Below are positions 1 through 954 of a stretch of 990 nucleotides of DNA, piece by piece; within the stretch, counting starts at the first letter, position 1; the number at the start of each line of letters is the position of its first letter. A program made the position numbers and the translations under genes. Under the pieces are notes generated by a model. That model ran no database searches. It was not told the origin of the DNA and was given only the letters and a program-made list of their open reading frames with translations. Source of the DNA: Escherichia coli (lineage in GTDB: Bacteria > Pseudomonadota > Gammaproteobacteria > Enterobacterales > Enterobacteriaceae); the NCBI RefSeq assembly GCF_003334255.1, contig NZ_QOWU01000178.1. One strand, written 5' to 3'.

Positions 1-954
1 CTGTTTTTCCGCCGTACGGTGAATTTCCACACCGAAGAGGTGATGCTGGACAAAATTACCGGAAAAACGCCGGTGGCGGCCTATGTCTCCCCGATCGTTG
101 AAGGAAAAGTGCTGCGCCATCGTGGTGGTGAAACCCGCGTGTTGCGTCCGGGCTACGTCAAGCCGAAACACGAATTTAATTACCAGCAGGCGGTTGAGCG
201 CCTTCCTGGTGAAGATCCATCTCAACTGAATGATCCGGCTTACCGCCGTCTGCGTATCATTACCGATAACCTCAAACAGGAAGAGCACGCCATTGTCCAG
301 GTGGAAGAAATGCAGGCGGTAAATGCTGTGTTGTATGGCAAATACACCATGGAAGGAGACCAGTTCGAGAAAATTGAGGTCGATTTTGGCAGGTCGACGA
401 AGAATAACATCACTCAGGGTAGTGGTAAGGAGTGGTCAAAACAGGATCGTGACACGTTCGATCCTACACATGATATTGACCTCTACTGCGACCAGGCCAG
501 CGGTCTTGTGAATATTGCCATTATGGACGGTACCGGCTGGCGTCTTCTGAATGGTTTTAAGCTGTTCCGCGAAAAACTGGATACCCGTCGCGGTTCAAAT
601 TCTCAACTCGAAACGGCAGTGAAAGATCTGGGCGCAGTGGTGTCCTTCAAGGGGTATTACGGCGATCTGGCCATTGTGGTGGCGAAAACGTCTTATATAG
701 CAGAAGACGGTATCGAAAAACGTTATCTTCCAGATGGCATGCTGGTTCTGGGGAATACTGCTGCAGATGGGATCCGTTGTTACGGTGCCATTCAGGATGC
801 TCAGGCGTTGTCCGAAGGTGTGGTGGCCTCTTCCCGTTATCCGAAACACTGGCTGACGGTAGGGGATCCCGCCCGTGAATTTACCATGACGCAGTCCGCG
901 CCGCTGATGGTGTTGCCGGATCCGGATGAGTTTGTGGTGGTACAGGTGAAATAA
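1..954 (+). CDS. E: Major capsid (head) protein, lambda gpE family, HK97-like fold; 5'-partial, N-terminus lies upstream of the window
   Basis: Frame 1 is open from base 1 to the TAA at 952-954. The translation carries blocks I recognise from lambda gpE: YVSPIV, RGG, PGYVKPKHE, DPAYRR, VEEMQAV, GKYTM, NNITQ, KLDTRRGSNS-LETAVKDLG, GDPAREFTM-QSAPLM and a DPDEFV-VQ C-terminus. The first window codons (LFFRRT) align with lambda gpE LFFRES at roughly residue 24 of the 341-aa lambda protein, so about 20-25 N-terminal codons are missing. The GTG at 19 used by the ORF track is an in-frame internal codon, not the real start. Identity to lambda gpE is estimated from memory at roughly two-thirds, not computed. 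Confidence 0.93.
   Translation: MFFRRTVNFHTEEVMLDKITGKTPVAAYVSPIVEGKVLRHRGGETRVLRPGYVKPKHEFNYQQAVERLPGEDPSQLNDPAYRRLRIITDNLKQEEHAIVQVEEMQAVNAVLYGKYTMEGDQFEKIEVDFGRSTKNNITQGSGKEWSKQDRDTFDPTHDIDLYCDQASGLVNIAIMDGTGWRLLNGFKLFREKLDTRRGSNSQLETAVKDLGAVVSFKGYYGDLAIVVAKTSYIAEDGIEKRYLPDGMLVLGNTAADGIRCYGAIQDAQALSEGVVASSRYPKHWLTVGDPAREFTMTQSAPLMVLPDPDEFVVVQVK

Follow-up and report, generated by a model that had tools for sequence, protein, structure and literature searches.

The window, by which we mean the whole 990-bp stretch of DNA analysed here, comprises the last 317 codons of a major capsid gene of the lambda gpE/phage 21 gene 7 type, followed by a terminator-like hairpin. The 3' part of the gene occupies positions 1–954 of the plus strand in frame +1 (codons 26–342 of 342, with the TAA stop at 952–954), and both the ORF scan and the translation leave the reading frame open at the left window edge. 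The sequence-only reading had taken this to be a capsid gene, and its identification is borne out by a full-length match to Pfam Phage_cap_E (PF03864; E 3.5e-63, residues 5–341 against model positions 1–329 of 329), by 99.2% nucleotide identity between the window and phage 21 gene 7 (major capsid protein), and by 62% amino acid identity between the full capsid protein and lambda gpE, with which it is collinear over its full length with one single-residue gap. The capsid protein also matches the PHROG “major head protein” family (E 7e-186); the capsid fragment gave no NCBIfam match.

The window is 100% identical to part of a prophage in E. coli ATCC 25922, where the product is annotated as “major capsid protein” (WP_000522603.1), and other E. 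coli chromosomes are likewise 100% identical to it. Related copies of the gene are present in 1,883 of 5,426 complete E. coli genomes. The ATCC 25922 prophage is lambdoid, about 49.5 kb long and inserted between potC and potB, and it is also found in related strains. Its head genes run terS-terL-W-portal-protease/scaffold-decoration-capsid-FI-FII, the same order as in lambda and phage 21 (decoration, then capsid, then FI). Compared with phage 21 gene 7 and lambda gene E, the gene in the window shows no difference of note, and is best described as a prophage-carried allele. Two places in the ATCC 25922 chromosome (NZ_CP032085.1) match the window, which points to a further prophage in this strain whose capsid gene is related. 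A 169-bp stretch of Aeromonas phage AP1 (MT713136.1 250228–250396; L088 2501–2669) is 97.6% identical to window positions 1–169; this stretch carries no annotation and lies close to the end of the 254-kb record of an Aeromonas jumbo phage, and the match probably reflects misassembly or contamination rather than a real transfer.

Beginning 6 nt after the capsid stop and ahead of FI, a strong terminator-like, GC-rich hairpin with a T run lies at positions 960–990 of the plus strand. The terminator scan placed a stem of 9 pairs at 962–982, followed by GTCTTTTT; the hairpin, GCGGGGGCG-AAAT-GCCCCCGT, has an RNA folding energy of -17.7 kcal/mol (z -2.9), and in the source genome the T run extends to TTTTTT (L001 20960–20996). 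In lambda, the capsid–FI region lies within a single late operon, and the record of phage 21 carries no terminator annotation for the hairpin. The structure could be a partial terminator or a putative 3' hairpin that stabilises the mRNA and so raises capsid expression; in either case, it is separate from the GATC finding. An Rfam scan of the window (E<=1) returned no RNA family, and a weak sigma-70-like promoter match at 449–477 was discarded because the promoter scan found no more such matches than in shuffled sequence.

The Dam target tetranucleotide GATC is present ten times in the window, which makes it the commonest of the 16 palindromic tetramers there. All ten starts proposed from the sequence (93, 214, 232, 445, 460, 625, 664, 771, 865 and 919) are exact, with gaps between successive starts of 121, 18, 213, 15, 165, 39, 107, 94 and 54 bp. 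Eight of the sites have the phase GAT|Cxx, where they encode five Asp-Pro, two Asp-Leu and one Asp-Arg dipeptide, and the remaining two have the phase xxG|ATC (Pro-Ile and Gly-Ile).

How unusual ten sites are depends on what is held constant. Naive null models give 3.8 (base composition), 4.4 (first-order Markov) and 5.8 (second-order Markov), so that the earlier estimate of about 4 sites is correct for models of this kind. Dinucleotide shuffles contained 4.56 +/- 2.0 sites and only 1 of 200 reached ten; the corresponding nominal P value for the composition-only excess, about 0.005, rises to about 0.08 once the 16 palindromic tetramers are allowed for. When synonymous codons were permuted in a way that left both the protein and the codon usage of the gene exactly unchanged (20,000 permutations), the expectation was 8.38 +/- 1.53, against which ten sites are unexceptional (P(>=10)=0.22). 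This is the codon-preserving shuffle that the sequence-only reading had itself named as the test that could refute the enrichment, and by its outcome the GATC excess follows from the protein sequence together with codon bias. The proposed enrichment therefore stands against composition-only models but not against one that preserves protein and codon usage, and the count in the window provides no sign of a functional enrichment of Dam sites.

Redrawing codons from E. coli usage gave 7.75 +/- 1.94 sites (P=0.18). A permutation of whole codons, which keeps composition and destroys dipeptides, gave 5.49 (P=0.026); the difference between this value and the 8.4 of the synonymous null indicates that residue order adds about three sites. 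The synonymous null was calibrated on the 15 host genes that flank the prophage, in which 81 GATC sites were observed and 78.9 expected. Under this null, 39 of the 256 tetramers in the capsid gene have a z score at least as high as that of GATC (1.1). Among them, TCGA deviates more strongly (6 observed versus 3.3 expected in positions 1–951, z 1.9), an excess that is itself unremarkable among 16 palindromes.

The features of the protein that generate the sites can be identified. The capsid protein has 23 Asp residues, 11 of which are followed by Leu, Pro, His, Gln or Arg, compared with 6.0 expected from composition (P=0.02). There are five Asp-Pro pairs where 0.94 would be expected, and each of the five has an Asp-Pro counterpart in aligned lambda gpE; these pairs are old features of the capsid family and are presumably structural. 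Asp is encoded by GAT 16 times and by GAC 7 times, and this 70% share of GAT is the normal E. coli preference. The ratio of GAT to GAC is 8:3 where a C comes next and 8:4 where another base does (Fisher p=1). GAT is thus used equally in the two contexts, so that synonymous codon choice shows no pull towards GATC and none away from it. Synonymous-level selection neither favours nor disfavours GATC in the capsid gene, and avoidance of the kind described for enterobacteriophages is not seen at its synonymous positions. The suspicion, voiced when the sites were first noticed, that many of them are by-products of Asp-Pro, Asp-Leu and Asp-Arg encoded as GAT-Cxx was correct, given that eight of the ten sites have this form and that the shuffle predicts 8.4.

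A scan of viral contigs yielded 80 loci which, together with phage 21 and the window, gave 53 distinct ungapped alleles that are 88–99.9% identical. The number of GATC sites per allele ranges from 5 to 10, with a median of 7 and a mean of 7.36; the synonymous null predicts the same average, 7.36, with a mean O/E of 0.99. Only the window reaches ten. Its nearest relative (L005) differs by one nucleotide over 951, a synonymous change at nt 921 where the window has T (GAT) and L005 has C (GAC), and phage 21 also has C at this position.

Conservation varies widely from site to site. Only three sites are fixed or nearly so among the 53 alleles: 214–217 (GAT|CCA, Asp-Pro; GAT in 53), 664–667 (GAT|CTG, Asp-Leu; GAT in 53) and 865–868 (GAT|CCC, Asp-Pro within the conserved GDPAREFTM motif, and part of the GGATCC at 864–869; GAT in 52). 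Lambda E shares both the Asp-Pro and the GATC of the first of these and also has GATC at the position of the third; at the position of site 664 it has Asp-Val, which makes GATC impossible there. The five other GAT|C sites occur in 15 to 35 of the alleles. Site 232–235 (GAT|CCG, Asp-Pro) is GAT in 15 and GAC in 38; 445–448 (GAT|CGT, Asp-Arg) is GAT in 31; 460–463 (GAT|CCT, Asp-Pro) is GAT in 35; 625–628 (GAT|CTG, Asp-Leu) is GAT in 26; and 919–922, within a Pro-Asp-Pro-Asp motif encoded as CCG GAT CCG GAT, is GAT in 32. Lambda has GAC at the positions of sites 232, 460 and 625, and Asp-Lys at that of site 445. Both xxG|ATC sites are in the minority: 93–96 (CCG ATC, Pro-Ile) is carried by about 10 of 54 distinct related alleles, phage 21 having CCG GTT instead (Ile to Val), and 771–774 (GGG ATC, Gly-Ile, within the GGATCC at 770–775) by about one third of them. 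Across the family, site conservation beyond that of the amino acids was not found (three of ten sites fixed or nearly so, mean O/E 0.99), and GATC sites turn over freely among close alleles.

To place the capsid gene in its genomic setting, we compared GATC densities in the prophage, related phages and the host. The whole prophage contains 142 sites in 49,458 bp (2.87/kb, O/E by composition 0.75), which is close to phage 21 (2.96/kb, O/E 0.76) and above lambda (2.39/kb, O/E 0.61), while a 166-kb sample of the same E. coli chromosome has 4.30/kb (O/E 0.97–1.36 per chunk). At least ten sites are found in 3.7% of 990-bp windows in this host sample, where the maximum is 15, and in 2.6% of those in the prophage. 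The capsid gene is the second GATC-densest stretch of the otherwise depleted prophage (9.7/kb versus 2.87/kb). The densest is an “exonuclease” gene (L004 17951–20389), where as many as 13 sites fall within 990 bp; its 16 sites against 15.7 expected are fully explained by the synonymous null. Evaluated gene by gene against that null, the prophage has 130 sites where 162.8 are expected (z -3.75, O/E 0.80) and lambda has 97 where 156.6 are expected (z -6.7).

This shortfall is unevenly distributed. The head module from terS to FII has 45 sites versus 39.9 expected (O/E 1.13), the tail-shaft module from Z to T has 13 versus 11.0, and the side-fibre module has 10 versus 8.1. The tail-tip module from H to Lom has 9 versus 42.5 (z -7.6, O/E 0.21), a five-fold depletion that accounts for the low GATC content of the whole prophage. 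The statement that the phage does not avoid Dam sites consequently holds for the capsid gene and the head module and does not hold for the prophage as a whole (O/E 0.75–0.80). The accompanying suggestion of a Dam-positive enteric host is upheld by the perfect identity of the window to E. coli chromosomes, E. coli being a species that has Dam; GATC content, however, is not diagnostic of such a host, because lambda has the same host and an O/E of 0.61. The prophage has no annotated Dam-like methylase. It does carry, as cargo, a gene annotated as “class I SAM-dependent methyltransferase” (L001 37732–38400, minus strand) that adjoins a tail-fibre assembly gene; this methyltransferase-like gene has no NCBIfam match, and in PHROGs it falls into a family of unknown function.

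The GATC-specific purge of the tail tip, which lies outside the window (genes H, M, L, K, I, J and lom; L001 24295–33915), is the most interesting observation made in this work. Gene J has 2 sites where the synonymous null predicts 22, and lambda J shows the same depletion in weaker form (5 versus 17). In gene J the ratio of GAT to GAC is 2:16 before C versus 33:21 elsewhere (p 3e-4), and Ile after G-ending codons is encoded by ATC in 0 of 23 cases (8 of them use the rare ATA) versus 31 of 49 elsewhere (p 6e-8). The strongest depletion among palindromic tetramers of the tail tip is that of GATC (z -6.4); TCGA comes second (z -3.5), and CCGG is enriched (z +4.2). One reading of this pattern, which we consider unlikely though worth stating, is that lambdoid phages experience module-specific selection, in which the head, tail-shaft and side-fibre genes tolerate GATC (O/E 1.1–1.2) whereas the host-range segment H-J-Lom is purged of it (O/E 0.21), even where rare ATA codons are the price. 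A possible reason for the purge is that GATC-free DNA escapes MutH-dependent heteroduplex processing when J alleles are reshuffled by homeologous recombination. Were this true, the capsid window would serve as an “unselected” control rather than as a signal.

Three GGATCC sites were claimed for the window and three are present, at 770–775, 864–869 and 918–923, and the last lies in a 10-bp palindrome, CCGGATCCGG, that a pattern search confirmed at 916–925. The palindrome is below the detection length of the repeat-search tool, which reported no direct or inverted repeats in the window (seed 8, minimum length 10). Dinucleotide shuffles predict 0.31 GGATCC sites, and 0.01 occurrences of CCGGATCCGG are expected; under the synonymous null 0.90 GGATCC sites are expected, so that three are nominally unusual (P=0.027). 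These figures might be taken to suggest a specific protein-recognition or restriction-related element, an idea to which we assign a negligible probability. The T at nt 921 alone creates the tenth GATC (919), the third GGATCC (a BamHI site) and the palindrome, and both the nearest allele and phage 21 lack them. The palindrome is not conserved in the family, the stretch encodes a conserved C-terminal Pro-Asp-Pro-Asp motif, and we know of no E. coli system that targets GGATCC. Because 52 of the 53 alleles have between zero and two GGATCC sites, we regard the triple as a post-hoc extreme of an extreme allele.

Two further explanations of the GATC count itself were weighed, and both appear very improbable. 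In one, selection maintains the sites as a Dam-dependent element within the capsid gene, either as a SeqA-binding or “GATC-cluster” block that tunes late transcription or as a local enhancement of methyl-directed mismatch repair that protects the gene. For SeqA, a binding pair consists of two GATC sites facing the same side of the helix, no more than about three turns apart. The window does have two close pairs, but their spacings of 15 bp (445/460) and 18 bp (214/232) correspond to 1.43 and 1.71 helical turns, out of phase for binding on one face by this rule. A count 2.5 times the composition expectation, the position of the gene as a local hot spot in a GATC-poor prophage, and the proposal that coding-region GATC clusters are regulatory in E. 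coli (PMC493266) would all be compatible with a selected element; yet the count does not exceed the protein-preserving null, the family mean O/E is 0.99, seven of the ten sites are polymorphic among alleles at least 88% identical, GAT is not preferred before C, lambda E has only 5 GATC sites, and the spacing falls outside the published definition of a cluster. The other explanation, no more probable, treats the excess as pure sampling fluctuation independent of coding constraints, a randomly hot window. It draws on the 3.7% of host windows that reach ten sites, on the post-hoc choice of the motif and on the standing of this allele as the extreme of its family. Against it, the expectation climbs from 3.8–4.6 (composition) through 5.5 (codon permutation) to 8.4 when the real protein is kept, which makes most of the excess deterministic from Asp-[Pro/Leu/Arg] and leaves to chance only the last 1.6 sites or so. 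Several of the Asp dipeptides involved are, moreover, conserved down to lambda gpE.

We therefore consider it very likely that the GATC richness of the window is a passive by-product of the encoded protein and ordinary codon usage, with no selected DNA signal. The surplus of Asp-[Leu/Pro/His/Gln/Arg] in the capsid protein and the 70% usage of GAT would together produce about eight sites, and one or two recent point changes would have brought this allele to the top of the family range of 5–10. Host Dam presumably methylates these positions in a lysogen, and they would then serve generic GATC roles only, such as strand discrimination by MutH. Three results count against the by-product explanation, namely the single dinucleotide shuffle in 200 that reached ten sites, the presence of a hot spot in a depleted prophage, and the GGATCC P value of 0.027. 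The GATC observation is nonetheless real, its origin is ordinary, and it marks no functional element. It illustrates how a motif “enrichment” in a coding sequence can disappear when protein and codon usage are kept constant, and how a single allele can stand at the extreme of its family. It also cautions against reading anything about the whole phage or its host from the GATC content of a single phage gene.

The pac site of phage P1, described in PMC12707154 as a Dam-dependent packaging site, resembles the window in having multiple GATC in a phage late region. In P1 pac, however, the GATC are tightly grouped where packaging cleavage takes place, unlike the sites considered here, which are spread over 830 bp of the capsid ORF. 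Cos features are annotated in phage 21, and a P1-pac-like packaging signal was rejected on the grounds that the sites are dispersed, mostly unconserved and located in a cos-packaging lambdoid family. The GATC clusters of E. coli and Salmonella coding regions (Henaut 1996; Riva 2004) are likewise GATC-rich coding DNA in a Dam-positive enteric genome, and those of E. coli have been proposed to be regulatory (Riva et al. 2004, PMC493266). They are defined by pairs less than 8 bp apart or triplets within less than 62 bp and, subsequently, by at least four sites with a mean spacing below 18 bp (PMC493266). The first screen found neither such a pair nor such a triplet in the window, and the second found no run of four sites with a mean gap below 18 bp. 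A cluster of this type was consequently set aside, the smallest start-to-start spacings being 15 and 18 bp with no triplet within 62 bp; the window also differs from such clusters in showing no excess over the coding null.

Lambda GATC sites are reported to be about 46% methylated after lytic growth (10.1101/2025.08.29.673000). Counter-selection against GATC in enterobacteriophages has long been known, as summarised in PMC5014478 with reference to McClelland 1984 and Deschavanne & Radman 1991, and in bioRxiv 10.1101/2025.08.29.673000 with reference to Henaut et al. 1996, and it involves the same motif and the same Dam/MutH host background as here. The whole prophage (O/E 0.75–0.80), lambda (0.61–0.62) and phage 21 (0.76) match this known depletion, whereas the capsid gene and the head module depart from it in being undepleted (O/E 1.1–1.2), the depletion of the prophage being concentrated in its tail tip.
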